Shown here piece by piece: positions 707 through 52,838 of a DNA stretch of 64,000 bases. The notes beneath the pieces were generated by a model. The model saw nothing but the letters and a program-made list of their open reading frames with translations. It ran no database searches and was not told where the DNA came from. Position 1 is the first letter of the stretch. The number at the start of each line of letters is the position of its first letter. A program made the translations under genes and the position numbers. The stretch lies in NCBI GenBank assembly GCA_000433255.1, contig HF998230.1:9589-73588 (forward strand), written 5' to 3'. Source of the DNA: Coprobacillus sp. CAG:605 (GTDB taxonomy: Bacteria > Bacillota_I > Bacilli_A > RF39 > UBA660).

Positions 707-844
707 AATTGTATAGGGTTATCCTATACTTTTTCAATGTCCAAAAAACAAAATTATACATTATTTTCTAGATAAAACCAGCAACTAGTTTGACATATGT
801 AAAGCATTGTGCTATATTAAATATCCACAAAAGAGGGGATAAAT

Positions 845-17661: not shown

Positions 17662-18496
17662 TACAGCACAAGCAGTTAAAGATAAACTAAAGAATATTTC
17701 AAGAGAAAAAAATGTAGATTTTAACTCTGTAATGAGATTCTATATGTATGATAGATTTGTTGAACGTTTATCAAAAAGTAAATATAAAGATAATTTCATA
17801 TTAAAAGGTGGATTCTATTTGAGCAAATTATTTGGAATAGATAATAGAAGTACTATGGATATAGATACTGCAATAAGAAAAGCAGAATTTACTGAAGAAA
17901 ATCTTATCAAAATGATAAATGAAATTATTAGTATTGATGTAGGTGATAATGTTAAATTTAAAATTGAAAAAACTGAATCAATCCGTGATGAAGATGAATA
18001 TGGTGGATTAAGAATTACAATTAATTTTATGTTAGAAAACATTAAGGATAAATTTCATATTGATTTAGCAACTGGAGATCCAATATATCCAAGACCAGAT
18101 AATTATAGATATGAATCTTTAATAGGAGATGAAATTTATAAGGTTTGGTCATATAATCTTGAAACGGTTCTTGCTGAAAAAATAGAAACAATTCTTAGTA
18201 AACTTGAAACAAGTAGTAGAATGAAAGACTATTATGATATTTATTTAATATATAAGCTTAAATTTGATAAAATAGATAAAGAAAAATTTAGAGGAGCTGT
18301 TGAAAAGACTTTTAATACAAGAAAATTTGATGCTGATCTAATAGCAAAGTTGAATATTGTTAAAGAAAGTAAAGTTTTAAAAGATAAATGGATTAGCTAT
18401 TCAAGAAAAAATAGTTATGCTAGAGATGTTGAGTTTGAAGATACACTAAAATGCCTAGAACAATTTATTGATATTATAGTACAAATTGCAGTATAA
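17654..18496 (+). CDS. abiEii: AbiEii/AbiGii-family nucleotidyltransferase toxin (DUF1814)
   Basis: MSNTAQAVKDKLKNISREKNVDFNSVMRFYMYDRFVERLS..FILKGGFYL..STMDIDTA is a typical AbiEii N-terminus. The ATG at 17654 overlaps the abiEi stop. Confidence 0.85.
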   Translation: MSNTAQAVKDKLKNISREKNVDFNSVMRFYMYDRFVERLSKSKYKDNFILKGGFYLSKLFGIDNRSTMDIDTAIRKAEFTEENLIKMINEIISIDVGDNVKFKIEKTESIRDEDEYGGLRITINFMLENIKDKFHIDLATGDPIYPRPDNYRYESLIGDEIYKVWSYNLETVLAEKIETILSKLETSSRMKDYYDIYLIYKLKFDKIDKEKFRGAVEKTFNTRKFDADLIAKLNIVKESKVLKDKWISYSRKNSYARDVEFEDTLKCLEQFIDIIVQIAV

Positions 18497-19145
18497 AAAT
18501 AATATTCTAGGTGCCATTTAGGTACCAACAGACTAATAAATACCATTTTATTACGATAATTATAAAAATATAACAGTCCTAAAAGGCCGCTTTTAAGAGA
18601 AATTAATACATACAGGTATTCAAATGGCGAGCACCCTGAAGGAACCAAAAGGCTTAACCTTTTTATGTTAAAGGACTTTAAAACTATTAAGCAATTTAAG
18701 GTACACTTTTATGTATACAATTTAAAAAAAACAGGTGGTAATAATATATCCTGAGTTTGCAAAAGCTCTAATTATCAATGCAATTAAGCTGCATATAATC
18801 ATGCATGTACACTTTTACACGTATGGATTTTCGTATATCAAAGTCCAATACTAACTGGTTTTCACTTTATAAAAATAGCTTAATAATCTTCTAAGTCATC
18901 TACAACAAAAACAGCATAGTTGATATCGGTACTAAGAATATGTAAACATGTATTTAGTATTTCCGTAATCTTAGTATGTTCTAAATATTTTGCTACTAAT
19001 GTAAAGAGTAATTTAAAATGACACGCTAACACCATTATCAATAATAACTTCTTCACAATTAAAACCATAAATTTCCAGTATTAAGTAGCATAAATCCCCT
19101 TAATTTCATAAATTATTAGTGAGAATATATGAAAGGGTGAAATAT

Positions 19146-19577
19146 ATGTGTAATAAAAATACTAACTCTAATTGTGTCGCTGAAATATTAAAAGTAATCT
19201 TAGTATTACAACAAAATGCATGTCCTGAATCATGCTTAGAAACTTGCGATCGTCCACTTTTAGGTGGCGGTCCAAACTGCCTTATTTGCAACACAAGACC
19301 AGTAATGCTTTATACTTGTAGTGGTAATGGTACACCATGGTCCATGCCTACCAGCAAAGACGTAACAGCTACATGTACTGATACTTCCGAAAACTGTTCT
19401 AAAATATTTAGAGTAGAAAAATTAGAAGGAAATTGTGCTACATTTAGAGTATTAGCAGATAATCCAGATCAAACTAGTCTAAATCCATACGTTGCAACAA
19501 ATTCTTTCTTCACAATGGACTGTGATTGCTGCTGCGTCATTCGTTGTCTTTCTGATACTTACGTTGAATGTGTTTAA
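19146..19577 (+). CDS. CotY/CotZ-family cysteine-rich spore coat/exosporium protein
   Basis: NCVAEILKVILVLQQNACPESC..RPVMLYT..FRVEKLEGNCATFRVL..DCDCCCVIRCL resembles B. subtilis CotZ/CotY. GAAAGGGTGA RBS precedes the ATG at 19146. Confidence 0.75.
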   Translation: MCNKNTNSNCVAEILKVILVLQQNACPESCLETCDRPLLGGGPNCLICNTRPVMLYTCSGNGTPWSMPTSKDVTATCTDTSENCSKIFRVEKLEGNCATFRVLADNPDQTSLNPYVATNSFFTMDCDCCCVIRCLSDTYVECV

Positions 19578-19624: not shown

Positions 19625-21622
19625 TTAAAAGAACATATTATAAAATGGCGTTCCAATAAAAGAAAAACGATAATTTTCAATATTAAATTCACTTAAATCC
19701 TTAGGGTTACTAATATCAATATCTTTAATACTTTCTAAATTTTGATAATCCCCCTTAATACTTAAACTAATATTACTTGTATCCTCATCATCAACTATAC
19801 TAACCATAATATTACTATTCATAGAAGTACCTAAATCATTATACTCAGCCGTCAAATTAACATTAACAACATTTGAAGAAACAATCATCTTCATACTAGC
19901 ACTACTACTACTAGTTTTAATAGACATTTCTACCTTCGAACTATCCATATTACTAGTAATACTCAAAGTTAAACTATCATTAATAAACAAAATATCTACA
20001 TTATAATCATTATTTACATACCCAATCTTTATTGGATTATCCGTCTTTTTATCTACATAAAAATCAATAACTACATTATCACTAAAAGTAATATCTTCAA
20101 GTAAATCTCTATAATTTTCATTACTATCCATAACATCATTTAAAATATTTTGCAAAAGAGTAGGTGTTAAAACTAAAGACTCCTTCTTAGTATCATACGT
20201 AACATCATTAATCACAATTGCCTCAGTACCTTTAGTAACTTTTGCATTTTTAAGATTCTTCTTAAACGAAGTAGTTAACGTCTTAACAAATTCCTCAATA
20301 TCAAAATCAGATAACTCATCCGTATTAATATCAATCTTATTATCATTACCCATATCATTATCCGTAACATAAGTACTAGGATCAACCCCATTAAATCTAA
20401 TATAAGTCTTATTATCTTTACCTAAAGCATCAATATTAACAATATTATTCTTAAAAAAATTATCGACAACCTTCAAATTATACTTAGGATTTTCTCCATT
20501 TAAATAAGTAAAATGATAAGTATAATTAGTAAAATCTTTAAAATCTTCTAAGTTTGTATCCACCTTTAATTCATAAGTACCACTTTTTAAGTTAGTATAA
20601 CCATTTTCGCCCGAAGTTAAACTTCCAATACTCTTCGATAAATCATTTAAATGCAGATTATTATTTATTTCATATATCTTCGAACTTAAAGTATTTATTC
20701 CTAGTTCAATCGCTGACTTAGTATTTTTACTAAATACAAAGTAGTAGAGTAGACCAGCTATCCCAAGTATTACCAATAAAACCGCTATTAAAGTTATAAC
20801 TATATCACTTTTATTTTTCTTCTTTTTTTCTGGTACAGGCGTATTTTCTTGCTTAGTATTTTCAGAAATCTCTTTGTTTTCAGTCTTTTCTTCATTACCT
20901 GAAGTTATTACGATATCATTATTATTTTCTTCTTTTACTTCGTTATTTTCTGGAACTTCAGTAACACTTTGTGGTTCAACTTGTAAATTATCCTGGGTAT
21001 TTTGGTTAACTTCTATATTTGTACTAGGAACATCTTCTAAAGTAGTAGGGTTATTCTCACTATCAGCTGGTGTACTAACATTTGATGTATCAATACTATC
21101 TTCATTATTTTGATTTTCCGTAGTAGTATTTAAATTACTTGGGTTAGCCACAACATCATTGTTCAAAGTATCACCCACACCAGCAGGAGCATCAAAACTA
21201 AAAGCTGGTTCCTCTGTAACTTGTGGAGTATCACTAACTACATTATTACTTTGATTTTCTATGTTTTGAGCAGGAACATCCACATTAGAAATATCCTCAA
21301 CCGGATTAGCATCAACTCCAGTTGTATTAACATCATTATTTAAAACCACTGGCTCACTAGGTACCACATCTAAAACTTCTGTTTTATCTAAATTATCTAC
21401 AGGCTCCACAATATCAAGCCCATTATTTGCAGGTATCTCTGATTCATTATTATCTAAAGTATTTTTCCTAGTCTCTATCTGATTCCTATCAGGGATATCA
21501 CTTGGCATGTTATTTCCAATATCATTATTAGTATTCTCAACATTAATCTCACTACCAAGTGATGTAATAGGGGTATCTTGCACCAAAGTAATCTTATCAT
21601 CACTATTGTATTTATCTTCCAT
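19625..21622 (-). CDS. bitopic membrane protein: ~265-aa acidic N/D/E/T/V-rich disordered N-terminus, one TM, beta-rich ectodomain
   Basis: TM IVITLIAVLLVILGIAGLLYYFVF is preceded by KKKKNKSD. The ectodomain layout parallels the next gene. Confidence 0.6.
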   Translation of the reverse strand: MEDKYNSDDKITLVQDTPITSLGSEINVENTNNDIGNNMPSDIPDRNQIETRKNTLDNNESEIPANNGLDIVEPVDNLDKTEVLDVVPSEPVVLNNDVNTTGVDANPVEDISNVDVPAQNIENQSNNVVSDTPQVTEEPAFSFDAPAGVGDTLNNDVVANPSNLNTTTENQNNEDSIDTSNVSTPADSENNPTTLEDVPSTNIEVNQNTQDNLQVEPQSVTEVPENNEVKEENNNDIVITSGNEEKTENKEISENTKQENTPVPEKKKKNKSDIVITLIAVLLVILGIAGLLYYFVFSKNTKSAIELGINTLSSKIYEINNNLHLNDLSKSIGSLTSGENGYTNLKSGTYELKVDTNLEDFKDFTNYTYHFTYLNGENPKYNLKVVDNFFKNNIVNIDALGKDNKTYIRFNGVDPSTYVTDNDMGNDNKIDINTDELSDFDIEEFVKTLTTSFKKNLKNAKVTKGTEAIVINDVTYDTKKESLVLTPTLLQNILNDVMDSNENYRDLLEDITFSDNVVIDFYVDKKTDNPIKIGYVNNDYNVDILFINDSLTLSITSNMDSSKVEMSIKTSSSSASMKMIVSSNVVNVNLTAEYNDLGTSMNSNIMVSIVDDEDTSNISLSIKGDYQNLESIKDIDISNPKDLSEFNIENYRFSFIGTPFYNMFF

Positions 21623-21703
21623 AGTCCATCTAAACTCCTTTTTACTTTCTACTATATTAAAATTATATCATACACCCACGAAAAAAAGTGCATAATTTTG
21701 CAC

Positions 21704-23578
21704 TTAATCATTATTAATAATAAAACCTAAGAAATTTATTCCTATCTGCGTCATCTCTTCATCAGATAAATCATATACATCCATACTATCAGTAGTATCA
21801 AATTCATAAGTTTTTTCCTCTTTACTCTTAGTATAATTCATATTCAAAGTACCATTAACACTACTATCATTCTTATCAATAAATGTTAACATAACCTCAC
21901 TATTACTATCATTACCATTAACAAGCAACTTTCCACTATACTTAGCAGTTATAAGATTAGCTTCATAATCAATATCTATCTTTTCTTTATCAAAACTATT
22001 AATATCTAAACTTAAAATACGGACATTACTATAAGATAGTTCTAACTTTTTACCATATAAAGTCATATAAATCTCTTGATTATCTTCATCAATAACTTTT
22101 ACTTGGTAATCTTTATTATAATTAATTATTCTAACTACTTCTTGATTATCCCTTAAGATACTTATTCCTAAAATATCATGCATAATACCCTTAGTATAAA
22201 CATCAATACTTATATTATCACAATCAATTTCACTAGTCTCATTTAAATAATCATTAACTTTATCTTTAGCAATACCCGCTGAAGTTGCAATATCATTTAC
22301 TAAAGTATTATTTTCTAAAATTCTTTTTTTAACTTTATTAACTAAGTCATTAATATCATCCTTAGTATAAGTTATTCTTAATTTCTTAACTTTAATATCT
22401 TGATTATTAATTGATATTGTATCTTTAATCGTCTCACTCTTAGGAATACTAATTTCTTCTAATATAATATCTTTAATAATTACTAAATCATTTTTTAAAA
22501 GATTATAATCAATGTTAGAATTCTTACTATCAAGTTTAACACTTAAAGGATAATATGCTAACTTATTAGATCTTAAATACAACGTATCATCAGTCTCTTT
22601 ATAAGAAATATCTAAACTATTATTATCTAAACTATTAATCATAGTAATATTACCAGAATTAATCTTATCTTTTAAATTATGACTAAAATTAAATTTATAC
22701 TCATACTTACTTAAAAACTTCAAATAATCAGTTGTTGTACTAAATGAGGCCCCACCACTCATAATATAAGATTCATTATTATAACTACCAATATCACTAA
22801 TTACTTTATTAGCCTTATTAAATAGAGTAGTAATACCATTATTTAATCTAGCCCTTGAAGAAGACACAATTACAAAATACGCTATATAAAAGCATGCTAG
22901 TAGTAAAATAACTACAATTAAAGGTTCAATAACATTAGTTTTCTTCTTCTTTTTTAAAATTTTCTGTTCTAGCTTTTTATCTTCTTCTTTTTCTTGTTCT
23001 TCTTTCGTTGGAATATCTTCTAAAGAAACTTTTTCTACTAATATGTCATCATTCTTAGAACTTACCACATATTCTTGTTCATTTTCTAAGATAATTTGTG
23101 GTTCTTCTATGTCTACTTTTTCTTTTGTCTCTTCTTTTTTACCATCTTGAATAATCTCTTCATGTACTTCTTTTACTTCAACAACATCCTTATTACCAGC
23201 CTTAACTTCTTTTTTTACTTCTGGTATTGGTGTAGGAATGCCTTCCGTTACAGCCTTTGCATCAGCATTTTCTATAGTCTTTTCTAACTTATTATCTATC
23301 TTCTTAACGTTTTTAACATTATTCTTCTTAGCTACATTATTCTTATTATTTCTTTTATTTTTCTTAGGATTATTATTAGTTTGATTACTAACTTTTTTAG
23401 TATTATTTTTCTTACTACTATTATTTTTATTCTTCGTATTTACGTTCTTCTTATTACTTGATTTAGTCTTTGTATTACTAGACTTATTTTTCTTACTATT
23501 ATTTGATTTCTTTTTATTTATATCTTTTTTACTATCAAGATTACTCTTAGTAGTATTAGGCTTTTTATCTTCCTTCAT
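21704..23578 (-). CDS. bitopic membrane protein, distant paralogue of the preceding gene, with ~100-aa K/N-rich polybasic N-terminus
   Basis: N-terminus KKPNTTKSNLDSKKDINKKKSNNSKKNKSSNTKTKSSNKKN.., TM VIEPLIVVILLLACFYIAYFVIV, ectodomain of similar length and layout. Confidence 0.6.
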   Translation of the reverse strand: MKEDKKPNTTKSNLDSKKDINKKKSNNSKKNKSSNTKTKSSNKKNVNTKNKNNSSKKNNTKKVSNQTNNNPKKNKRNNKNNVAKKNNVKNVKKIDNKLEKTIENADAKAVTEGIPTPIPEVKKEVKAGNKDVVEVKEVHEEIIQDGKKEETKEKVDIEEPQIILENEQEYVVSSKNDDILVEKVSLEDIPTKEEQEKEEDKKLEQKILKKKKKTNVIEPLIVVILLLACFYIAYFVIVSSSRARLNNGITTLFNKANKVISDIGSYNNESYIMSGGASFSTTTDYLKFLSKYEYKFNFSHNLKDKINSGNITMINSLDNNSLDISYKETDDTLYLRSNKLAYYPLSVKLDSKNSNIDYNLLKNDLVIIKDIILEEISIPKSETIKDTISINNQDIKVKKLRITYTKDDINDLVNKVKKRILENNTLVNDIATSAGIAKDKVNDYLNETSEIDCDNISIDVYTKGIMHDILGISILRDNQEVVRIINYNKDYQVKVIDEDNQEIYMTLYGKKLELSYSNVRILSLDINSFDKEKIDIDYEANLITAKYSGKLLVNGNDSNSEVMLTFIDKNDSSVNGTLNMNYTKSKEEKTYEFDTTDSMDVYDLSDEEMTQIGINFLGFIINND

Positions 23579-24844: not shown

Positions 24845-25963
24845 TTAATCTAAATTATTAATAGACTTAGCTAAGGACTTCTTATTAACTTCAAACAAAT
24901 ATAAATTACTATCTTGAAGAATATAAAACTTAGCTTCCTCCCGTTTCTTATCATTATAAAACATTATAGGTAATCTTAAATTATCTCTAACATCTACTAA
25001 TTCACTAAAACTTTTAATATTTAATACATTATAATCATTAACATTAGGTTTAGTTGAAGTATCAACAATTAATCTATCATATTCTCTTAATAACGTATTA
25101 ATATATTTATCATACTTACTTAACTTCTTCCTATTTTTAATAACCCTATATAATACAACCCCCAAGCAAAAACATGCCAACAACGTCCAGAAAACCCCAA
25201 CTGCCATTTTTGCCCATTGTCCCATATCAAAACTATAATTAGTAATATTCTTTTCAATACTTTTATTTACCTCTTGAGTTTTAAGATTTATTTCTATAGC
25301 TTTCTGTGATAAAGGAATTTGTACTAATAATTGAGATGAAGTAGGGATATTATCATACTTAGAATTAACCTTATTAGAAGTATTTAAATAAACCTCTAAG
25401 TAACTCTGAGAATTAATTCCATACATAGCTTTAAAACTATTTGCAATTTCATTGTAATAATCATAATTAATATCGATACTTTTATTTAAATTATAAAAAG
25501 TATTATTATTATCAATTACATCTGTTGTTTTAGAAACTAAATTATAATCTTTTTCATAATATTTTGTTGAAGTATCACCATTTTTTATTATCAATTTAGC
25601 CGTTATTTCATAATCAACAGCGTCAATTAAATCATCAATATTACTATTAAGTTGATAATTAAAATTTAGTGATATTTTTTTTATTAAACTAGCTACATAT
25701 GACATATTAGATGATAAACAATTATCTTCAAAAAAATCATTTTCTTTTAAACAAACACTATATTTAATACCACCTTTTTCTAAAAATATAAGCTTATCTT
25801 TATTAGTATCTTTTAATGCTAAACTAATGAATTTGATTCCCACAAGTAATGATATTATAGAAACTAAAATATAAAACCAAGTACTATTTAAAAAATCAAA
25901 TTTATTATTCTTAGCTTGATAATGCTTTGTAAAATTATTTTTCTTAGCCATAATATTTACCAC
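24845..25963 (-). CDS. two-TM protein encoded downstream of sipW (resembles DUF5305-type SipW-associated proteins)
   Basis: N-terminal TM (WFYILVSIISLLVGIKFI), a large ectodomain, a second TM (MAVGVFWTLLACFCLGVVLY) and a cytosolic tail. Overlaps the sipW stop. The family assignment is from memory of architecture only. Confidence 0.5.
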   Translation of the reverse strand: MVNIMAKKNNFTKHYQAKNNKFDFLNSTWFYILVSIISLLVGIKFISLALKDTNKDKLIFLEKGGIKYSVCLKENDFFEDNCLSSNMSYVASLIKKISLNFNYQLNSNIDDLIDAVDYEITAKLIIKNGDTSTKYYEKDYNLVSKTTDVIDNNNTFYNLNKSIDINYDYYNEIANSFKAMYGINSQSYLEVYLNTSNKVNSKYDNIPTSSQLLVQIPLSQKAIEINLKTQEVNKSIEKNITNYSFDMGQWAKMAVGVFWTLLACFCLGVVLYRVIKNRKKLSKYDKYINTLLREYDRLIVDTSTKPNVNDYNVLNIKSFSELVDVRDNLRLPIMFYNDKKREEAKFYILQDSNLYLFEVNKKSLAKSINNLD

Positions 25964-27087
25964 CTCTCATTTAATAATACTGTAGGATAACCAATTAAAG
26001 GTAACTTTGATTTAACTATTCCTACAAACATATCCTGGGTAATTTTATATTTATCATAATCTTGATTAGCGTCTCCCTTAGTATAAATATAATATTCACC
26101 ATTAGTATTAATAATTTTATAAACTCGATGAACAACTACCTTGTTATCATAATTATAAGCTAAAATATCACCTTGTTTAATATCTTTAAAATATTTATCT
26201 ACAATTACAACATCACCCTTATAAATATTAGGTACCATAGAATTACTAGCAATAGCAATAGCATAATATCTAAAATATCCTGAAACAAAATATATTAAAC
26301 AAAAAGCACAGATAATTAAAGGCAAAAATATTATCAAAGTTTTTTTCCTTTGATGATAATATTCTCGTTCAAGAGCATCAGTTCGATCACTTTTATACCA
26401 GTTAATTATCTTTTTTAATAATAATAGAGGAATTATTAAAAAGATCAAAGAATACAAATATTCACTAGGGTTAGGAACAATTGGCATTAAATACTTATAA
26501 AGATTTATTATTAATAAGTAAACAATTCCCGGTTTATAACCTTCCTTAATCCCTAAATATGTACACAAAATATTTTCTGTAATAGATGGCAAAATACTTA
26601 CCGCAATTAATAGAAAAGTATCTCTATTAAAACCAAGAATATGAGATTCTAATGCAACAACATTATCCATTATTATAAAAAATACACACGTTAATACAAT
26701 TAATATCCACGACTCACTGGATTTTTTTAAAAGTTGATATCTTAAAAATTCTTTTATAAAAATATATAATATTATAGGAATAATAATATTTAGAAAAGAC
26801 TTTATCGTAAAATAATTAGTATTTTTGGCAAATCCAATTATAATGCCAAACAAGTAGTAAACAAGAAAAAAAGCTATTAAAAAAATAACAATTTCTAAGA
26901 TGACATCCTTAACATAGCGATGTCTATCTTTTTCAAAACCTAGTATCATATAAAATACTACTAAGGATAGTAGCATAATTATATTTAAACCAGTAGTTTC
27001 TAACTTTCTAAACACAAAACTATTTGAAAGAAAAATAAAACTTAAGATTGAAATGAACAATATTATTTTTATATAACTTTTTTTCAT
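25957..27087 (-). CDS. sipW: SipW/ER-type (S26B) signal peptidase I fused to a ~260-aa N-terminal polytopic membrane domain
   Basis: C-terminal catalytic domain IASNSMVPNIYKGDVVIVD..GDILAYNYDNKVVVHRVYKI..YTKGDANQDYD has the Ser box, the HR box and GDxN..D. About eight hydrophobic segments precede it. Confidence 0.8.
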   Translation of the reverse strand: MKKSYIKIILFISILSFIFLSNSFVFRKLETTGLNIIMLLSLVVFYMILGFEKDRHRYVKDVILEIVIFLIAFFLVYYLFGIIIGFAKNTNYFTIKSFLNIIIPIILYIFIKEFLRYQLLKKSSESWILIVLTCVFFIIMDNVVALESHILGFNRDTFLLIAVSILPSITENILCTYLGIKEGYKPGIVYLLIINLYKYLMPIVPNPSEYLYSLIFLIIPLLLLKKIINWYKSDRTDALEREYYHQRKKTLIIFLPLIICAFCLIYFVSGYFRYYAIAIASNSMVPNIYKGDVVIVDKYFKDIKQGDILAYNYDNKVVVHRVYKIINTNGEYYIYTKGDANQDYDKYKITQDMFVGIVKSKLPLIGYPTVLLNERW

Positions 27088-27102
27088 TTTTACCTACCTC
27101 AA

Positions 27103-27756
27103 TTAGTCTACTGAACTATAATTTAAAGCTATATTACCAAAAGAAACACTGAAATCGCCATCAGCACGTTCTGCATTTAGCGCATATTCTAAAGTAACAG
27201 TAACAAGTTCACCAGTTTTTTTAGCTAAAGAATGTCCAGTAATTGATGCTTTACCACTAGAAGTTTCAAGCTCATTTCCAACTTTTACTTTAACAGAAAT
27301 ATTTTCACAAGCTTTTTGAACTAATTCATCAGTTGTTCCTTCATTAGCCGTACAAATTTTAGCTTGAGTTTGATTAGCTACATTTTCATAAACTATACTC
27401 TTTAAGTAAGCATTTAATTTCCCAGCATTGTATGCATAAAATTTATATACAACAGATTGTCCTGGTTCAGTAAATACCGCACTTAAATTTGATATAACTG
27501 GATCATTACTATTATCAATGGTACCATTAGTAGCAGTAACACTATTTGGTGTAGAAGTTGGAACTATTTCACTAAGGTCAACACTATCAATTGAACTAGA
27601 AAAATCAACATTCATAGTACTACTATCAGGTTTAACATTTGCACTAGATTGAATATTCAAAACACTAGAAAATGAAGCAAAACCGATTGATAATCCTGCA
27701 ATTCCAACAACTAAAGCAATTATAGCTATTATTTGTGCAGCTCTATTCTTTTCCAT
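27103..27756 (-). CDS. secreted TasA/camelysin-like protein with SipW-type signal peptide
   Basis: First gene of the sipW operon. Signal/anchor ends ..GLSIGFASFSSV; compare TasA ..GGGTWAAFND. Beta-rich body contains FTEPGQSVVYKFYAYNAGKLNAYL. Confidence 0.55.
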   Translation of the reverse strand: MEKNRAAQIIAIIALVVGIAGLSIGFASFSSVLNIQSSANVKPDSSTMNVDFSSSIDSVDLSEIVPTSTPNSVTATNGTIDNSNDPVISNLSAVFTEPGQSVVYKFYAYNAGKLNAYLKSIVYENVANQTQAKICTANEGTTDELVQKACENISVKVKVGNELETSSGKASITGHSLAKKTGELVTVTLEYALNAERADGDFSVSFGNIALNYSSVD

Positions 27757-27838: not shown

Positions 27839-27867
27839 TTGAAGCTTTTTTAAATCTTTGATACAAT
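27839..27867 (+). promoter_or_regulatory. sigma-A type promoter for yfhO-like/pilin-like genes
   Basis: TTGAAG (27839-27844), 17 nt, TACAAT (27862-27867). Confidence 0.5.
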
Positions 27868-27883
27868 TATATTGGTGATTATA

Positions 27884-30118
27884 ATGTCCAAAGTAGTAAA
27901 AAAATATAAATACGAAATCCTAGCGTTTTTATTTTCCTTTTTAGTTGGATGCTTAGTAATTTTACCCAATACAATTTTAGGAAAAGGTCTATTTTTTCTA
28001 GGTGCCGACTTAAATTTACAACAAATGGTATTCGGTGAAGTTATTAATTATTCATTAAAAGAGGGTAGTTATCTATGGACTTGGTTTAATGACTTAGGAA
28101 GCAACTTTATAGGAACATTCAGTTTTTATAATTTATTTAGTCCTTTTAATATTATTACATATTTATTTCCTGCAACCTGGTATCCCTATTTATGTCCATT
28201 TTTAATGATTATTAAATTCGGAGTATCTGGTTTAACTTCCTATTTATTTTTAAAACGCTACGTTAAAGATAAAAAGTTAGTAGTACTAGGATCTTTATTA
28301 TATTCTTTTTCAGGCTTTCAATTTACCAACATGCTTTTTCATTTTTATGATTCCGTCGTTTTATTTCCTTTGCTTTTATATAATCTAGATAATTTAGTAT
28401 ATGATAATAAAAAAGGATGTTTTTCTTTAACTATTTCTTTGCTAGCGTTTACCAACTGGTTTATGTTTATCGGGCAAGTAGTTTTTATTGTTATTTACTA
28501 TCTTATTAAAATTATTTGTAAAAGTTATACTTTCAATGTAAAAAAGTTCTTTTCCATTTTATTAGAAGGAGTACTAGGAACTTTAATTGCCAGTGTTGTT
28601 TTAATACCTTCCTTATTATTTACCATTTCTAATCCTAGAATCAATAATAGTTTTACTTTAATTAGTTCATTAAAATATAGTAGTATAATCAATTATATTG
28701 AAATATTTAGAACATTTTTCTTTCCCTCAGAAGTAATGAATCCAAGAGCATATTTGGATATTGCTAATTACGATAGTATTGATTTATATCTTCCTTTTGT
28801 TGGCTCTGCTTTAGCAATTTCTTATGCGTTTAAAAGAAGAAAAAACTGGCTTAGTATATTGATATTTACCTGTATTTTATTTATGTTCATCCCGATACTT
28901 AATAGTTCGTTTTTCTTATTTACAACCAAATACTATGCCAGATGGTTTTATATGCCAGCTCTTATTTTGTCTTTACTTTCCATAAAATGTATAGAAGAAA
29001 ATCTTAGTATCAAAACAGGTATTATTACTTCCTTTTTAAGTTTATTAGTAATGATTTTAATTTACTTATTATTAACATATAAATATCCCAATACTGAGTA
29101 TATTCATGATATTAACTATCTAATTATGATAATTAGTTTTATGATTATTAATTTAATTACACTCACAATTATATATAGATCTAAAAATAGAGTTAAGTAT
29201 TTATATATCTTTGTTACACTATTTTCTACTATCTGGTCCAATTACTCAATTTATAAATATCGCAATAACAATCTTGAATATAACCAAAAATATTATGATT
29301 ATATAAATAGTTATAAAGAAATAAAATTTGATAACTTAGTTAGAAGTAATTCATTTTCTAATTGCTACTATAATCAAGGAATGATTTTTAAAAATAGCAA
29401 CTTATGGTCTTTTAATACTAATATATCTGGACAAGCATTTGAATTTTATAATAGTGTTGATTATCCAAGAGCTGTTTTGACTAATATTGAAGTCAATAAT
29501 CCTTTAAATGATTTTTTATCAGTAAAATATTTTATTTCATGTACTAATGAAGAGAGCGAAGAGTATAAACTTTATAAAAAGACTGATAATTATCAAATCT
29601 ATTTAAATAACAATTATAAAGACCTAGGTTTTGTATTTAATAATTATATAAGTAATGAAGAATTTCTAAGTAAAAATACCTTAGAAAAATACCAAATTAT
29701 AAATAACACAATTGTACTTAATAATGATCAAATTAATAAGTATAAAGATCTTTATAACGACGATGTTAAAGTATTCTCTAATACTTTTAAATTTATTAAT
29801 AATGGTTTTAATTCTAAAATTGATGTTTCTAAAGATACTTTAGTTTTATATACTATTCCCTATGATAAGGGATGGAGAGCATTTGTTAATGAATCCAAAG
29901 TAGAAATTGAAAAAGTTGATAATGGTTTAATAGCAATTAAGATAAATAAAGGCGTTAATAATATAGCATTTACATATTATCCACCTGGTCTAAAGGCTGG
30001 GTTAATATTAACCATTGTTTCATTTATTATTTTACTTGCCTATATTTTTCTAAACAACAAGTCTTTGATTTATAAGAAAATTTTCTCAGTATTTTATAAA
30101 AAACAATCTTTATTATGA
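27884..30118 (+). CDS. YfhO-family polytopic membrane protein (GT-C-like glycosylation factor)
   Basis: About 745 aa with more than 12 TM segments, a C-terminal extracytoplasmic domain and a final TM. N-terminal pattern ..FLGADLNLQQMVFGEVINYSLKEGS..W.W is typical of YfhO proteins. Confidence 0.75.
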   Translation: MSKVVKKYKYEILAFLFSFLVGCLVILPNTILGKGLFFLGADLNLQQMVFGEVINYSLKEGSYLWTWFNDLGSNFIGTFSFYNLFSPFNIITYLFPATWYPYLCPFLMIIKFGVSGLTSYLFLKRYVKDKKLVVLGSLLYSFSGFQFTNMLFHFYDSVVLFPLLLYNLDNLVYDNKKGCFSLTISLLAFTNWFMFIGQVVFIVIYYLIKIICKSYTFNVKKFFSILLEGVLGTLIASVVLIPSLLFTISNPRINNSFTLISSLKYSSIINYIEIFRTFFFPSEVMNPRAYLDIANYDSIDLYLPFVGSALAISYAFKRRKNWLSILIFTCILFMFIPILNSSFFLFTTKYYARWFYMPALILSLLSIKCIEENLSIKTGIITSFLSLLVMILIYLLLTYKYPNTEYIHDINYLIMIISFMIINLITLTIIYRSKNRVKYLYIFVTLFSTIWSNYSIYKYRNNNLEYNQKYYDYINSYKEIKFDNLVRSNSFSNCYYNQGMIFKNSNLWSFNTNISGQAFEFYNSVDYPRAVLTNIEVNNPLNDFLSVKYFISCTNEESEEYKLYKKTDNYQIYLNNNYKDLGFVFNNYISNEEFLSKNTLEKYQIINNTIVLNNDQINKYKDLYNDDVKVFSNTFKFINNGFNSKIDVSKDTLVLYTIPYDKGWRAFVNESKVEIEKVDNGLIAIKINKGVNNIAFTYYPPGLKAGLILTIVSFIILLAYIFLNNKSLIYKKIFSVFYKKQSLL

Positions 30119-30156
30119 TATAATACACTTAGAATATAAAAGTAAGGAGAGTAGCG

Positions 30157-33100
30157 ATGAAGAAAAATGGTTATACATTAGTCGAATTAATTATTACAAT
30201 GGCATTACTTGCTCTAGCATCAACAGTTATCATTGTTAATATGCAAGGTGTAGAATCTAAACAAAATAAATCCTTGAAAGAACGTCGTATTGCTGAAATT
30301 GAAAAAGCCGCCTGCTCGGCCATTGATTCTCTCCAAGCCGAAATAATAACTGGTCAAAACCGGGATAATTGTCTTGCCAATGGCTGCAAGATAAAATTAT
30401 CTAAATTAGTTAGTGAAGGTATCATTGATGAAGATTTAGACTTTGACTCTGATGGTACAAAAATAGTTGATATTAAAGATCTTTATTCAGTTGGTATTAA
30501 ATGGGATACCACAAGTGATGGTTATAAAGAAAAAAAATGTGAATTTGAACTTCGTGATCTTGATACTGATCCAATTGATCCCAATCCAACGCCTGATCCC
30601 AATCCTGACCCTGGCCCAACGCCGGATCCTAATCCTGACCCTGACCCTAATCCTGACCCAACACCAGAACCAGATCCTGTTTCTTCTAGTTTTGGTTATA
30701 CCGGTTCAGTTCAAAAATATATTGTTCCCAAAACAGGTGTTTATAAACTTGAAACTTGGGGTGCTCAAGGTGGATCAACATCAGGATGTATAGGAGGATA
30801 TGGGGCTTATAGTACGGGCGAAATAACTTTGAAAAAAGATGATGTAATTTACATTACTGTTGGTGGGTCTGGATTAGGCTACACAACTCATCGCCCTTTA
30901 TCTGGAGGTTATAATGGTGGCGGTGGTTCTAGTCCGACAAGTGACACTAATGAAATAACTGCCTCTGGTGGTGGAGCTACTCACATTTCCAAAACTAATA
31001 AGGGCACTTTATCAAATTATTCTAGTAATGATGAGATTTATATCGTTTCTGCTGGTGGTGGCGGTGCTGCTGCGAATAAAGCCATAATGTGTGTTAATGG
31101 TGGTGCTGGTGGTGGAATATCTGGCAATAATGGTGGACGTTATGAAGAAAACACTACCGATGCTAGAATTAGCGCTATTGGATATGGTGGCACCCAAAAT
31201 CGAGGTGGCTCATATTTCAATCAAACAACAAGTGGTAGTGGTGGTATTGCATCTGGAGTATTTGGCTCTGGGGCTAGTGGAAATTATACTGGCGCTGGTG
31301 GCGGCTACTATGGTGGTGGCGTCAGCCATTGTTCCGCCGGCGGTGGCTCAAGTTATATAGGAAATTCGGACTTATCCAATAAAGCCATGTACTGCTATAA
31401 TTGCGCTACTTCAAATGCCGCAAATACCAAAACAATAAGTGTAACATGTCATAGTGATACAGCAACATCAAACTGTGCTAAAGAAGGCACAGGATATGCT
31501 AAAATATCATATGTTAAAGCTTCTACTGAAGATCAAGAAATTTCTAATCCAAGTCCTGCTAAATTTGACTATACAGGTTCAGTTCAAGAATACACAGTTA
31601 TCAAAACTGGCAAATATAAACTTCAAGTTTGGGGAGCCCAAGGTGGTAGTGACAGTCCAAGCGATGGTGGTGTGGGTGGTTATTCGGAAGGCAAAATTGA
31701 ATTAACCAAAGGCAGCAAATTGTATATTGCTGTCGGTGGCCAAGGCTCACCATACACTAGAAAAGCCAAAAGCAATGGTGGCTTTAATGGTGGTGGATAT
31801 GGTGGCATCGTTAATGCCTCATCAAATCCTCAAGGAGGCTCTGGCGGTGGTGGAGCAACCCATATTGCATTAACTAACCAAACTCTTAACAATTTACAAG
31901 ACAAAAAAAGTGATATTTTAGTTGTCGCTGGCGGTGGCGGTGGCGGTGCTATGGTCCCTGGTGGAGCTGGTGGCGGAATATCAGGAAATAATGGAAATTA
32001 TGCCGACGATTATCCAACATATTTTGGTAGTGGTGGAACCCAAACTAGTGGTGGATATGATAACTACTTAAAAGATAACAAAGCCATCTTTGGCAAAGGT
32101 TCCGATCTTAACGAAGTAGGATATGGTGGCAATGGTGGCGGTGGTGGCTACTATGGCGGTGGCGGTACCAATCGTGCTCACAGTGGTGGTGGCGGTGGTT
32201 CTGGCTACATAGGAAACCCTAAATTGACTAACAAAATGATGTCATGCTTTAATTGCCAAGAATCTTCATCGGTTGATACGAAAACAATATCAACGACTTG
32301 CAAAAACTCATCACCCCTTGATAATTGTGCTAAAGTTGGTAATGGTTATGCCATAATATCTTATATAGATGGCACAAATACTGAAAAAACTACTGAGAGT
32401 TTTCAAACTAAGACTTATGACTTTACTGGTACGGAACAAACATTAAAGATTCCTGCCACTGGAACTTATAAACTAGAAATATGGGGAGCCCAAGGTGGTA
32501 ATTCATATGATGGAGTAGGTGGCTACGGCGGTTATTCTGTTGGAACTGTAACTTTAACTAAAGATAGTACACTATATATTCATGTTGGTGGTTCTGGATA
32601 TGATAGTAATTCTCCAGGCTATAATGGTGGCAAAGCCGATAATAACGCCACTAGTTATAATAGTGGTGGTGGCGCTACTCATATTGCCCTAACTAACCAA
32701 ACCCTTAACAATTTACAATATAAAAAGAGTGAAATATTAATTGTCGCCGGTGGTGGCGGCGCTGGAGAACGTGTTTATGGTGGCTCTGGCGGTGGCTATA
32801 TTGGGGCTGCTGGTTATACAATTGGCACTAATACTTATCCTTATTATGGGACAGGAGGAAGCCAAGCCCGAGGTGGAAATGGCTCTGTCATGTCATCTCA
32901 TGCTTCATCAGGGGTAATCAATGGTTCATTTGGCTTAGGCGGTTCTGGTTATAGTAGTACCGATACTGGAGCTTATGGCGGCGGTGGCTTCTTTGGTGGC
33001 GGTGGTACAACATATGCTGGAGGCGCCGGTGGTGGTTCTGGATATATTGGAAATTTGCTTCTAAAAAATAAAGCTATGTATTGCTATAACTGTGCTACAT

Positions 33101-33210
33101 CCAATGCCGCAGCCACAAAAACTATAAGTGTAACATGCCATAGTGCTAGTGCAACATCAAATTGCGCTAAGGAAGGCAATGGCTATGTAAGAATAACTAA
33201 AGTCTCATAA
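30157..33210 (+). CDS. prepilin-type N-terminus protein with small Cys-containing head, Pro-rich linker and three tandem glycine-rich modules (1017 aa)
   Basis: MKKNG/YTLVELIITMALLALASTVI fits the type IV pilin cleavage/methylation motif (G-[FY]-T-L-x-E plus 14 hydrophobic residues). Three ~270-aa repeats start F(G/D)YTG..Q.Y.V..TG.YKL..WGAQGG and end (M)YCYNCA..TKTISVTC..NCAKEGNGY. Confidence 0.85.
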   Translation: MKKNGYTLVELIITMALLALASTVIIVNMQGVESKQNKSLKERRIAEIEKAACSAIDSLQAEIITGQNRDNCLANGCKIKLSKLVSEGIIDEDLDFDSDGTKIVDIKDLYSVGIKWDTTSDGYKEKKCEFELRDLDTDPIDPNPTPDPNPDPGPTPDPNPDPDPNPDPTPEPDPVSSSFGYTGSVQKYIVPKTGVYKLETWGAQGGSTSGCIGGYGAYSTGEITLKKDDVIYITVGGSGLGYTTHRPLSGGYNGGGGSSPTSDTNEITASGGGATHISKTNKGTLSNYSSNDEIYIVSAGGGGAAANKAIMCVNGGAGGGISGNNGGRYEENTTDARISAIGYGGTQNRGGSYFNQTTSGSGGIASGVFGSGASGNYTGAGGGYYGGGVSHCSAGGGSSYIGNSDLSNKAMYCYNCATSNAANTKTISVTCHSDTATSNCAKEGTGYAKISYVKASTEDQEISNPSPAKFDYTGSVQEYTVIKTGKYKLQVWGAQGGSDSPSDGGVGGYSEGKIELTKGSKLYIAVGGQGSPYTRKAKSNGGFNGGGYGGIVNASSNPQGGSGGGGATHIALTNQTLNNLQDKKSDILVVAGGGGGGAMVPGGAGGGISGNNGNYADDYPTYFGSGGTQTSGGYDNYLKDNKAIFGKGSDLNEVGYGGNGGGGGYYGGGGTNRAHSGGGGGSGYIGNPKLTNKMMSCFNCQESSSVDTKTISTTCKNSSPLDNCAKVGNGYAIISYIDGTNTEKTTESFQTKTYDFTGTEQTLKIPATGTYKLEIWGAQGGNSYDGVGGYGGYSVGTVTLTKDSTLYIHVGGSGYDSNSPGYNGGKADNNATSYNSGGGATHIALTNQTLNNLQYKKSEILIVAGGGGAGERVYGGSGGGYIGAAGYTIGTNTYPYYGTGGSQARGGNGSVMSSHASSGVINGSFGLGGSGYSSTDTGAYGGGGFFGGGGTTYAGGAGGGSGYIGNLLLKNKAMYCYNCATSNAAATKTISVTCHSASATSNCAKEGNGYVRITKVS
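30565..30681 (+). repeat. Pro/Asp/Asn-rich linker encoded by degenerate CCn-GAY/AAY repeats (DPIDPNPTPDPNPDPGPTPDPNPDPDPNPDPTPEPDP)
   Basis: Read directly. Locally GC-rich, short-period repeat. Confidence 0.9.
30688..31515 (+). repeat. glycine-rich module 1 (aa ~178-453)
   Basis: Its 3' end (31381-31500) is near-identical at DNA level to the module 3 end (33068-33190). Confidence 0.85.
31561..32370 (+). repeat. glycine-rich module 2 (aa ~469-738)
   Basis: The central segment GGGATHIALTNQTLNNLQDKKSDILVVAGGGGG is shared nearly verbatim with module 3, including at DNA level (~31855-31940 vs ~32674-32760). Confidence 0.85.
32413..33207 (+). repeat. glycine-rich module 3 (aa ~753-1017)
   Basis: Starts YDFTGTEQTLKIPATGTYKLEIWGAQGG and ends MYCYNCATSNAAATKTISVTCHSASATSNCAKEGNGYVRITKVS. 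Confidence 0.85.
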
Positions 33211-33222
33211 CGAGACTTTTTT
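33199..33222 (+). terminator. rho-independent terminator of the pilin-like gene
   Basis: AAAGTCTC-ATAAC-GAGACTTT plus a T-run. The stop codon lies in the loop. Confidence 0.75.
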
Positions 33223-33233
33223 AATGTATTCTC

Positions 33234-33263
33234 TTGACAGGTATACCACCTACACCCTATAAT
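33234..33263 (+). promoter_or_regulatory. near-consensus promoter of the cop operon
   Basis: TTGACA (33234-33239), 18 nt, TATAAT (33258-33263). The spacer carries the C-rich element ATACCACCTACACCCTAT. Confidence 0.65.
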
Positions 33264-36608: not shown

Positions 36609-37044
36609 GATATTATATTACCTTATTATAACATTAGGTCTCTTCTTTTTATCAGGCTGCGAACAAACAACCAACAAAGATAAAATTGCTATCGAAACTC
36701 AAGATATTACAACCAAAGCTTAATTTCTAAATTATAAAGTTGATGATGTTACTATCCAACTAATCCATGTTCGCAGTACCGATGGCAAAGTAAGAATTGC
36801 CTTTAATACTTGTCAAGTATGTTCAATATCTTCTAAAGCGTACTTTATTCAAAGTGGAGAATACATTATCTATCAAAACTATGACACTAAGTTCCATATT
36901 AATAAAGTAGGAGAGAAAAATGGTGGTTGTAACCAACCTCCAGTAGAAGAACAAATTATTGAGGGTAATAGAATTATTCTATTTAAATCATATGTTGAAT
37001 CTTTCAAAGATAAATTTACTGATTGGCAAGGACCAACAAATTAG
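36601..37044 (+). pseudogene. DUF2318-like lipoprotein gene with in-frame TAA and lost Cys pair
   Basis: ATG overlaps the copZ stop. Lipobox LFFLSGC. TAA falls at codon 41 (36721-36723). Downstream in the same frame: DGKVRIAFNTCQVCSISSKAYFIQSGEYIIYQNYDTKFHINKVGEKNGGCNQPP, where the expected second CxxC reads YQNY. Confidence 0.75.
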
Positions 37045-52786: not shown

Positions 52787-52838
52787 TTGTACTTCTAATA
52801 TTTTTTTGCTATACTATTAGTGTTAGGTAGGTAATATT

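Follow-up and report, generated by a model that had tools for sequence, protein, structure and literature searches.

The open reading frame at 30157-33210 (+ strand) of the window, the whole 64,000-nucleotide stretch of contig HF998230.1 that was analysed, encodes a 1017-aa protein that is probably a modular minor type IV pilin of Coprobacillus sp. CAG:605, with glycine-rich domains (GRDs) as the cargo that would bind a ligand from the filament. The host is a spore-forming, low-GC, uncultured member of the Bacilli from the human gut, and the window is ordinary chromosome rather than prophage. Fourteen contigs encode the identical protein, whose cluster at 95% identity has 84 members. The features of the gene and its flanks are collected in Table 1.

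Table 1. Features of the pilin-GRD gene and its flanking regions (window positions).
Feature	Position	Strand	Evidence or remark
Promoter-like site, upstream of yfhO	27858-27885		11/12 matches
yfhO-family GT-C membrane glycosyltransferase gene	27872..30118	+	PF09586, E 1.9e-73
Shine-Dalgarno-like AAGGAG	30144..30149	+	ATG 7 nt further on; read off sequence
Class III (prepilin) leader peptide MKKNG, Gly at -1	30157..30171	+	PF07963 and TIGR02532 above cut-offs
Pilin module, aa 6-133: hydrophobic alpha1-N with Glu +5, small globular head	30172..30555	+
14-nt segment TTCGTGATCTTGAT, missing in a common allele at the same locus	30552..30565	+	Alignment with L012-L014
Pro/Asp/Asn-rich linker, about aa 134-178	30556..30690	+	Imperfect 30-nt repeats (repeat family D5)
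GRD module 1, about aa 179-452	30691..31512	+	PF12810; Foldseek ALK/LTK TG domains, probability 1.0
GRD module 2, about aa 470-736	31564..32364	+	Best PF12810 stretch
GRD module 3, about aa 754-1017	32416..33207	+	PF12810; protein ends here
Terminator-like hairpin overlapping the stop codon, then T run	33199..33219	+
Promoter-like site for the downstream csoR operon	33234-33263		12/12 matches

A prepilin N-terminus and a complete pilin module

The type IV prepilin N-terminus claimed in a first-pass annotation of this DNA is borne out by two profiles: MKKNG/YTLVELIITMALLALASTVIIV (the slash marks the predicted cleavage site) scores 23.3 bits with PF07963 and 21.3 bits with TIGR02532, against curated cut-offs of 21.2 and 16.3 respectively. 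Gly is at position -1 and Glu at position +5 of the predicted mature protein (Y6-T-L-V-E10; MKKNG/YTLVE), and both the MKKNG leader and Glu +5 are unchanged across all nine aligned head homologues. The signal belongs to class III and is not a SipW-dependent (TasA/camelysin-type) export signal of the TIGR04088 type. No second pilin-type N-terminus occurs in any frame of the window.

The head (aa 1-135, some 130 aa) aligns end to end with stand-alone pilins of 136-145 aa at 37-42% identity, and we therefore describe the protein as a modular pilin. Its four cysteines (C53, C72, C77 and C128) are invariant among the head homologues, as is the EKKCEF sequence that ends it, and the GRD cargo begins exactly at the end point of the stand-alone pilins. 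Compared with a divergent allele (dS 0.34), the head has a dN/dS of 0.10 overall and of 0.025 for aa 1-50. The AF2 model of the head, built from a nine-sequence alignment, has a mean pLDDT of 69 (about 80-89 over aa 40-135) and consists of a long N-terminal helix, helices to approximately residue 86 and strands at 77-80, 110-118 and 124-132. A Foldseek search of the PDB with this model returned no match at E ≤ 0.001, hence none to solved pilins.

Three GRD modules of the ALK/LTK type

Three tandem glycine-rich modules, each with a four-Cys cap at its end, follow the prepilin head, and their resemblance to the glycine-rich region of ALK/LTK, noted in the first-pass annotation, extends to both profile and fold. 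That annotation had proposed an HMM search against glycine-rich domain families and a structure prediction as checks, and both came out in its favour. PF12810 was matched in three stretches (357.9 bits versus a gathering score of 24.5, E = 4.8e-107), the best of which (aa 481-736) spans profile positions 4-242 of 243. The modules are predicted by AF2 with pLDDT mostly > 90, and the best 21 Foldseek matches in the PDB are all ALK, LTK or SCD-2 (E = 1.5e-8 to 4e-6, probability 1.0); among the best 50 listed, ALK/LTK domains are the sole significant fold matches, and the fibre of cyanophage Pam3 is next in the ranking. TM-scores against ALK/LTK are modest (0.3-0.46), in part an effect of querying with the whole protein. 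Profile-to-PDB matches agree (SCD-2, E = 2.7e-9; ALK, E = 1.5e-6). In the model each module has strands at both ends and a Gly-rich centre with few regular strands or helices, the centre also having pLDDT > 90; the module is predicted to be a TNF-like β-sandwich into which a glycine-rich core is inserted and which the four-Cys cap closes. Membership of the family suggests that the core may form a hexagonal lattice of polyglycine-II helices.

The modules (aa 175-455, 466-739 and 750-1017), each about 270 aa and roughly 28 kDa, are 51-54% identical in pairwise comparison and contain 23-25% Gly. Among 250 related modules, Gly accounts for 50 of the 107 conserved columns, with variable, indel-rich segments in between. 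Of the 250, 190 have the four-Cys cap, 44 have only the first pair and 11 no Cys; this pairwise loss fits two disulfides, and paired cysteines argue for extracellular modules. Purifying selection acts on head and modules alike (ω 0.10-0.15), with dN/dS against the L017 orthologue of 0.11, 0.15 and 0.13 for modules 1, 2 and 3 (dS 0.13-0.18, zero indels across 884 codons). The protein ends ...NGYVRITKVS in the last GRD module and has no LPXTG motif or other C-terminal anchor, which rules out a sortase-anchored LPXTG surface adhesin.

The first-pass annotation had further read recent intragenic conversion from near-identical DNA at the 3' ends of modules 1 and 3 and in the central stretch of modules 2 and 3. 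Alignment refutes this: 31381-31500 is only 81% identical to its counterpart in module 3, 31846-31976 only 77% identical to 32665-32795, and the longest exact match between any module pair is 19 nt. There was no recent conversion, because synonymous divergence is saturated in both segments (dS 1.15 and 1.10, with 1.1-2.3 in the rest of the modules). Their dN is 0.09-0.10 versus 0.5-0.6 elsewhere in the modules; the similarity is at the protein level and old.

The linker and a frameshift allele

Pro makes up 42% and Asp 23% of the linker (aa 136-178), which evolves with a dN/dS of about 0.85, has pLDDT < 50 and is probably an extended stalk. It has Thr within a Pro-rich context. Without the 14-nt segment listed in Table 1 the frame shifts and the pilin stops at 132 aa; this product (P0152) appears on 24 of the contigs read, and 35 blocks of the index contain it. 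The frameshift allele separates the head from a single signal-less GRD of another subtype, and its linker is 54 nt shorter than in the window. Some contigs have an additional in-frame deletion of 83 aa, and P0151 is another truncated variant. Since the frameshift allele uncouples head and cargo, the fusion is dispensable in part of the population.

Genomic context and pilus machinery

The gene lies 38 nt downstream of yfhO on the same strand, with no terminator-like site in the interval, and the two are probably co-transcribed. NCBIfam gives the YfhO protein weak matches, far under the cut-off (88.9 bits versus 1500), to PgfM2 and PgfM1, by NCBIfam naming the adhesin-glycosylation enzymes of S. 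mutans. The YfhO-family protein (PF09586) and the SipW operon had been pointed out as neighbours, but neither association is conserved outside the species: yfhO adjoins the pilin gene on every contig of Coprobacillus sp. CAG:605, whereas none of about 80 GRD loci in other genomes has a YfhO homologue closer than 10 kb to the GRD gene, and only two have SipW homologues nearby.

The window has no pilus assembly genes, as was first annotated; Pfam, to which most of its ORFs of at least 100 aa were submitted, gave no match to T2SSE, T2SSF or Peptidase_A24, and genes for a prepilin peptidase, ATPase or platform protein are found neither in the 64 kb nor in the 10 kb on each side. Such genes do occur beside GRD genes of relatives. 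The order in genome L007 is pilC, pilD, a divergent pilB-type ATPase gene, a gene for a 158-aa pilin-like protein and then a gene for a pilin with three GRDs; in L039 the genes around pilB are arranged likewise (pilB, pilin-like gene, pilin-GRD gene), and in L072, a close relative (RNase J 85% identical in amino acids), pilC-pilD is within 10 kb of a GRD gene. The order dnaG-sigA-trmK-pilC-pilD is common to four related genomes (L007, L072, L099 and L100), and a pilB-type ATPase is seen in L007, L039 and L048. Coprobacillus sp. CAG:605 itself encodes a second canonical modular pilin, MNKKG/FTLVELL with dockerin repeats. In several relatives the pilin-GRD genes are dispersed among housekeeping genes; minor pilin genes are commonly scattered in genomes.

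The GRD family is very large in uncultured gut Bacilli (5,057 clusters at 50% identity): genomes have several of its genes each, paralogues form tandem arrays, and giant members reach 10 modules. Part of its members have pilin N-termini. Most paralogues have other N-termini, either TM anchors or an 'IGYAAY'-type signal, and the cargo therefore needs no pilus.

Probable display on a filament and alternative readings

Judged from the sequence, display on a pilus is likely. The first-pass annotation had proposed a pilus- or pseudopilus-borne multivalent adhesin; the first half of that proposal gains indirect support from the full-length head homology, the pilB-adjacent pilin-GRD genes of relatives and the second modular pilin, while the term adhesin is extended to this protein by analogy with phage fibres, ALK and other modular pilins. 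Cleavage after Gly5 would be the work of a prepilin peptidase whose gene is elsewhere in the genome. With a minimal PilB/PilC/PilD set assembling a type IV filament (a pilus or a pseudopilus of the Com type), the head would then dock in it through its hydrophobic α1-N, most probably at the tip or a low-abundance site because the C-terminal cargo is bulky. The stalk and modules would be kept at a distance from the cell. Each module would present variable, ligand-binding loops on a conserved polyglycine scaffold, as in phage tail fibres and ALK/LTK, and three non-identical modules could give multivalent or multi-specific binding to a host, dietary or microbial surface. A literature search found no paper characterising any bacterial GRD, nor a binding partner for one. 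Speaking against pilus display are the lack of machinery in the window and 10 kb on either side, the lack of a solved-pilin match for the head model, the other N-termini of most GRD paralogues, and the frameshift allele.

The pilin-like N-terminus could instead be a membrane anchor only, either as a signal-anchor or cleaved yet retained in the membrane, from which stalk and GRDs project through the wall without a pilus. We hold this to be possible but rather unlikely. The missing local machinery, the ordinary N-terminal TM anchors or signals of most GRD family proteins, the dispersed pilin-GRD genes of several relatives and the pilin fold of the head, which Foldseek did not confirm, would all suit it; scattered genes are, however, usual for minor pilins, and in two genomes the pilin-GRD genes directly adjoin pilB and a minor-pilin-like gene. 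Moreover, the head is fully homologous to free-standing pilins, and the invariant Gly -1 and Glu +5 together with an ω of 0.025 over the first 50 codons (at dS 0.34) are more than a plain anchor would need. That the protein is a structural component of the wall or coat, its linker or modules glycosylated by the YfhO-family GT-C enzyme and serving envelope architecture more than ligand binding, strikes us as improbable. The closely spaced upstream yfhO, conserved throughout the species, the weak likeness of its product to PgfM1/PgfM2 and the linker Thr are what such a role would predict, but the gene pair is confined to this species among the loci compared, the PgfM scores are far too low, and glycosylation would be compatible with pilus display or binding. 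Most improbable of all is a decaying or non-functional fusion in which the pilin head alone matters and the GRD part is being lost: the frameshift allele, the 83-aa deletion and P0151 would be its traces, but the intact lineage has kept its modules under constraint without indels, and the full-length protein is carried unchanged on many contigs within a large cluster of close homologues.

A broader reading, which we put forward as speculative, treats GRD arrays as exchangeable receptor-binding cassettes of uncultured gut Bacilli, with the filaments serving as phage-fibre-like probes and the bacterial and phage pool as the evolutionary source of the metazoan ALK/LTK ligand-binding domain. The module would then travel among several carriers: pilins, proteins with a second and possibly SipW-dependent export signal, plain membrane anchors, giant proteins of many modules, and phage fibres. 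At loci such as this one, strains would swap cargo subtype and module number (three here, one of another subtype in the frameshift allele). If this were true, type IV filaments would probe host or microbial surfaces.

The ligand-binding fold of ALK/LTK was called very unusual in 2021; here a fold of this type makes up a large, untouched bacterial family in uncultured gut Bacilli. Part of its members look like genuine pilins. Should these pilins be displayed on type IV filaments, they would open a tractable route to what bacterial GRDs bind and to how poorly known gut Bacilli adhere to their host, to food or to other microbes, and the connection with phage receptor-binding fibres would become testable.

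Comparison with known systems

The first-pass annotation overstated its case in calling such a large cargo on a pilin N-terminus atypical. Modular pilins are an established class, and Dataset S1 of Raynaud et al. (2021; PMC8179133) lists IPR012902-PF12810 for two proteins and the exact domain string found here, IPR012902-PF12810x3, for one; Dataset S2 lists a PilY1 protein with PF12810. The 1017-aa protein has the IPR012902 signal, pilin module and non-T4P C-terminal domain that define the class. The architecture is not new, and the PF12810 cargo type has never been characterised; because the architecture is already catalogued, the value of the protein lies in function and ecology, not in a new principle.

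Examples of the class are PilB (pilin + vWA) and PilC (pilin + lectin) of Streptococcus sanguinis, modular type IV pilins (PMC8179133; PMC9934059) that, like our protein, come from a monoderm and join an IPR012902 signal and a small but complete pilin module through a linker to a domain not specific to pili. The cargo here differs: it consists of three domains in tandem, of about 28 kDa apiece and together about 88 kDa, on a long Pro/Asp stalk; the gene is away from the pilus locus, and filament assembly is a prediction.

The modules belong to the same Pfam family as the TG supradomain of ALK/LTK (TNF-like + glycine-rich; PDB: 7NX1, 7MZY, 7LRZ, 7LIR), and like it they would be extracellular binding domains. 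Identity is just 16-22%, however, and the bacterial domain is tandemly repeated, has its own paired-Cys cap per module and comes without a kinase or an ALKAL-type ligand. The same two-part TNF-like and glycine-rich fold is seen in gp24 of cyanophage Pam3 (PDB: 7YPX), whose conserved Gly stem carries a variable tip that recognises the host receptor (PMC9608196). Structure matches to viral proteins in BFVD number 66 at E ≤ 1e-3 (best 2.8e-36), some of them tandem, and PHROG matches at E of about 1e-96 (phrog_5811, phrog_1589 and phrog_7388) are to uncharacterised phage GRD proteins; tblastn against phage genomes gave no match, perhaps owing to the low-complexity filter. Phage fibre proteins form trimers on a helical shaft at the N-terminus and require a chaperone, whereas in our protein a pilin carries the modules, which stand in series. 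The gp38 adhesin of Salmonella phage S16 (PDB: 6F45) likewise combines a polyglycine-II lattice and conserved glycine motifs with variable binding loops, but has a β-helix in place of the TNF-like domain (PMC9608196); 6F45 is not among the best 50 PDB matches listed, and we regard gp38 as an analogue, not a demonstrated homologue. PilY1/PilC tip adhesins with PF12810 bear the same GRD cargo at the pilus tip on a different carrier, a β-propeller that docks on minor pilins in diderms and is not itself a pilin.

Architecture of the pilin-GRD protein

The protein begins with a prepilin signal and ends with three glycine-rich domain (GRD) modules. Pfam scores the prokaryotic N-terminal methylation motif over its gathering threshold and the NCBIfam cut-off of TIGR02532 is also passed, in agreement with the prepilin signature reported in the first-pass annotation. 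The leader is MKKNG and the predicted mature end is YTLVE..., which has Glu at +5 and then a run of hydrophobic residues. The Cys-bearing head, the D/P-rich linker and the three glycine-rich modules of about 270 aa described there are also present: four cysteines lie within residues 1–135, the linker (residues 136–178) is 42% Pro and 23% Asp and is coded by imperfect 30-nt repeats, and the search of glycine-rich family HMMs proposed in that annotation matches PF12810 (ALK/LTK glycine-rich domain) in three stretches (E = 4.8e-107). The modules are 51–54% identical to each other, the C-terminus of the protein is the end of module 3, and no LPXTG motif is found in the protein. The earlier observation is thus real, with the exception of its claim of gene conversion (see below).

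An AAGGAG Shine–Dalgarno sequence lies 7 nt 5' of the ATG, and a hairpin with a T-run overlaps the stop codon. Since a promoter-like site precedes yfhO, itself upstream of the gene, and no terminator was seen between the two, a yfhO–pilin bicistron is likely.

Features of the window and of the loci compared with it (L-numbers, fetched loci or contigs; other positions are those of the window)
Feature	Location	Strand	Remarks
Dockerin protein	9880–10713		signal peptide, C-terminal TM segment
AbiEi/AbiEii type IV toxin–antitoxin pair	16732–18496		between rmuC and the following small ORF
Small ORF	19119–19577		L001 counterpart is called Spore-coat_CotZ (PF10612)
Adjacent 665-aa and 624-aa proteins	19625–23578	-	
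SipW operon	24845–27756	-	217-aa secreted-looking protein, SipW-like peptidase, DUF5305 protein
YfhO-family protein	27872–30118		
Pilin-GRD ORF	30157–33210	+	1017 aa
GRD modules of this ORF	aa 175–455, 466–739, 750–1017		23–25% Gly
Sigma-70 consensus match, 12/12	33234–33263		5' of the csoR-copZ-copA operon
Apparent FtrD-like gene remnant	36922–37035		intergenic, after the cop genes; intact in L013:14266–14736
Small MucBP-domain protein, sortase-like protein, 222-aa unknown	51846–53507		in a row 3' of a sigma-factor gene and trmB
Frameshift allele	L012:10001–11081; L013:10001–11330; L014:1392–2472		same locus as window 30157–33210
Single-module GRD gene, same species	L097:13888–14688		about 3.4 kb past the window 3' end; ordinary N-terminal TM anchor
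GRD gene listed with the preceding one	L085:4466–5650		
Second canonical modular pilin, same species	L097:16548–17477		about 6.5 kb past the window 3' end; 309 aa
Cohesin protein	L007:255–1523		near the pilus genes of a relative
dnaG-sigA-trmK-(small ORF)-pilC-pilD	L007:1629–9990; L072:14024–20746; L099:3660–10401; L100:5884–12438		order kept in four related low-GC gut Bacilli
Seven N_methyl + PF12810 paralogues	L010:1–12175		head-to-tail array on one gut metagenome contig

The pilin head and its alleles

A search with residues 1–137 returned free-standing proteins of 136–145 aa at 38–43% identity, one of which carries the JGI name prepilin-type protein. These pilins and the head align end to end, with the GRD cargo starting at the point where the free-standing pilins end; the alignment shows no variation in the whole signal, AAC53, C72, C77 or EKKC128EF. 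Judged by its sequence family the head is a complete pilin, and its membership is clear. The AF2 model of the head, built from a shallow alignment, shows a long helix at the N-terminus plus a small sheet (pLDDT about 80–89 for residues 40–135); Foldseek gave no significant match for it in the PDB, pilin folds included.

A common frameshift allele is found on at least 24 contigs at the same locus, with YfhO upstream and csoR downstream. It lacks 14 nt at the head/linker junction and encodes a free 132-aa pilin (P0152, 91% identical); a second ORF, which overlaps that of the pilin and has no signal peptide, holds a single GRD of a different subtype. Its linker is 54 nt shorter, and L012 and L014 have an extra in-frame deletion of 83 aa between Gly runs. 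The head is under strong purifying selection in both lineages (dN/dS of 0.10 vs the divergent allele, at dS 0.51, and 0.025 over the first 50 codons) and the cargo differs; what stays constant is therefore the pilin, and the cargo varies and can in part be dispensed with. Phase variation was rejected for the 14-nt indel, as the site has no simple repeat and the alleles are deeply diverged; the indel is fixed between the lineages and is not a case of slipped-strand switching.

The glycine-rich modules

In the AF2 model of the whole protein (70-sequence alignment), the structure prediction suggested in the first-pass annotation, all three modules are mostly above pLDDT 90. The head and linkers are of low confidence and pTM is 0.43, so the model predicts no fixed geometry between modules. 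The 21 best PDB matches are all ligand-binding (TNF-like + glycine-rich) domains of ALK, LTK or SCD-2 (E = 1.5e-8 to 4e-6, probability 1.0), which bears out the proposed link to ALK/LTK, and the next relevant match is the fibre of cyanophage Pam3. The receptor-recognising end of the Pam3 fibre has the fold of the modules, its Gly stem being conserved and its tip hypervariable, and the likeness of this end to ALK (7LIR) has been remarked (PMC9608196). By sequence, a profile and not a single sequence is required to reach ALK in the PDB: the family profile reaches SCD-2 and ALK, and a single-sequence phmmer search matched the Pro-rich linker only. The viral structure library BFVD gives 66 matches at E ≤ 1e-3, among them tandem-GRD phage, cyanophage virion and giant-virus proteins, and matches at about 1e-96 are found to three PHROG families, all of unknown function. 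Many of the phage and giant-virus GRD proteins among the BFVD matches are labelled ‘receptor protein-tyrosine kinase’ in UniProt; this label is evidently an automatic carry-over from ALK via PF12810 and no kinase prediction.

In an alignment of 250 related modules, conservation reaches 80% or more in 107 columns (Gly in 50 of them), separated by variable, indel-rich segments. The cap cysteines are kept or lost pairwise (CCCC 190, CC-- 44, none 11), a pattern that fits two putative disulfides and an extracellular life. In a comparison with L017, an orthologue of 96% identity, dN/dS is 0.11–0.15 for the modules, which show no indels, and about 0.85 for the linker.

The first-pass annotation had described near-identical DNA shared by modules and read it as recent intragenic conversion. 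Neither claim holds. The stretches in question are 81% and 77% identical (ungapped), and the longest exact match shared by any modules is 19 nt. Codon analysis gives saturated dS in exactly those segments (1.15 for the module 1/3 cap, 1.10 for the module 2/3 centre), the same as in the remaining parts of the modules (1.1–2.3), which rules out recent conversion. It is dN alone that is low there (0.09–0.10 vs 0.5–0.6 elsewhere). As proteins the modules form a mosaic, which could reflect old exchange or differing constraint.

Genomic neighbourhood

RecA and RNase Y from the window (30% GC) show no difference from CCZ89270.1 and CCZ89272.1 of Coprobacillus sp. CAG:605, and 14 human-gut metagenome contigs encode the identical 1017-aa protein. 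YfhO lies upstream on the same strand and csoR-copZ-copA downstream; the other neighbours are housekeeping genes, apart from the divergent SipW operon. A prophage or phage origin of the locus was rejected on account of these neighbours (RecA, RNase Y, RecG, SufB, PBPs) and because tblastn against phage genomes gave no match.

The YfhO-family protein and the SipW operon, both named in the first-pass annotation, are indeed in the window, but the association is not kept in other species: a YfhO homologue is near a GRD gene in 0 loci and a SipW homologue in two of about 80. The yfhO–GRD adjacency being species-specific, functional coupling to YfhO was set aside and stays a minor rival. The YfhO-family protein has weak NCBIfam matches, far under the cut-offs, to S. 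mutans PgfM2/PgfM1, GT-C enzymes of adhesin glycosylation. Coupling to the SipW operon was likewise rejected, since the target signal is class III and the 217-aa neighbour does not match TIGR04088. The SipW-like signal peptidase has 376 aa here, with a polytopic N-terminal extension of ~240 aa, and some contigs have it divided between two ORFs. At its N-terminus (..IGFASFSSVLNI..) the 217-aa protein weakly resembles (E = 0.06) most non-pilin GRD proteins, whose N-termini are of the ‘IGYAAYNTTINI’ kind, and the operon may give GRD proteins a second route of export that depends on SipW.

The adjacent 665-aa and 624-aa proteins share a plan of low-complexity N-terminus, one TM segment and C-terminal domain. 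Their long N-termini are acidic/Asn-rich or Lys/Asn-rich and the two are weakly paralogous (26% identity, E = 1e-5); Pfam gives no match over cut-off for the pair, one of which has a weak sub-threshold CD1107-like match.

Pilus machinery and the mode of display

As stated in the first-pass annotation, the window has no pilus assembly genes: T2SSE, T2SSF and Peptidase_A24 have no match among the ORFs given to Pfam (most of those of at least 100 aa), no second pilin-type N-terminus occurs in any frame of the window, and no machinery is found in the 10 kb past either end. In a relative (L007), pilC, pilD, a divergent pilB-type ATPase and a 158-aa pilin-like gene are followed directly by a pilin-GRDx3 homologue (P0057), and L039 has the same layout of pilB, pilin-like gene (216 aa) and pilin-GRD gene. 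In the close relative L072 (85% aa identity in the C-terminal part of RNase J, 69% in RmuC) a GRD gene lies within 10 kb of pilC-pilD. PilC of the four genomes that keep the dnaG to pilD order has a long Lys/Glu-rich N-terminal extension (555–631 aa); L099 and L100 are species other than CAG:605 (79% nt identity in HU and RNase J respectively). The L072 PilC as query returned graded homologues, none under the CAG:605 name. As the machinery is known from relatives rather than read in CAG:605, we infer, on good grounds, that it is present in that genome. An FtrD-like gene lies directly 3' of pilD in L099. A possible ancestral adjacency linking this locus (pilD-csoR-like-FtrD-like) with the window (pilin-GRD-csoR-cop-FtrD remnant) gave short, weak collinear HSPs and is not relied on.

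The pilus-borne adhesin proposed in the first-pass annotation therefore stands in part, favoured by the pilin head and by the GRD genes beside pilB in relatives, with the lack of machinery in the window and its 10-kb flanks against it. The main rival is that the pilin-like end acts as a membrane anchor only; we regard this as unlikely. Filament display is the reading we consider probable, in which the protein would be a modular minor type IV pilin displaying three binding modules of the ALK/phage-fibre type.

The second modular pilin of the species begins MNKKG|FTLVELL... and carries dockerin repeats. Together with the dockerin protein of the window and the cohesin protein of the relative, it gives a hint of cohesin–dockerin docking onto pili. 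In the related MAG CALBBI01, GRD genes occur at three or more loci (L017, L042, L085).

The GRD family and known modular pilins

At E ≤ 1e-3, module 1 as query matches 5,057 clusters (representatives at 50% identity), and a threshold of 1e-30 leaves 591; among the matches are proteins longer than 7,000 aa, in which up to 10 stretches match. Giant GRD proteins of 5,000–7,663 aa occur in the metagenomic protein set (P0324, P0331, P0424 and others). Species-representative genomes hold at least 519 GRD-encoding stretches, often several per genome. Of the 80 listed, most belong to gut MAGs (from humans, ruminants and other animals) of uncultured Bacilli, ‘Tenericutes’ or Firmicutes, and a few of these records are titled Muribaculaceae or Clostridiales. 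A pilin signal stands at the start of about 24 proteins among the closest 120, and of 28–29 among 132 GRD ORFs from the fetched loci; many other GRD proteins begin with a hydrophobic stretch and then G-[YF]-A-[AS]-[YF].

A literature search found no paper on the function of a bacterial PF12810 protein, the mentions found being in the supplementary tables of Raynaud et al. only. The protein is of moderate interest because its cargo family is large, uncharacterised and tied both to phage receptor-binding proteins and to the ALK/LTK ligand-binding domain. Modular pilins were defined by Raynaud et al. (2021), who catalogued 264 architectures and showed a vWA adhesin module to be presented by PilB of S. 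sanguinis. Their Dataset S2 has one PilY1 protein with PF12810, and Dataset S1 lists IPR012902-PF12810 (two proteins) and IPR012902-PF12810-PF12810-PF12810 (one protein); the latter is the exact string of the protein described here.
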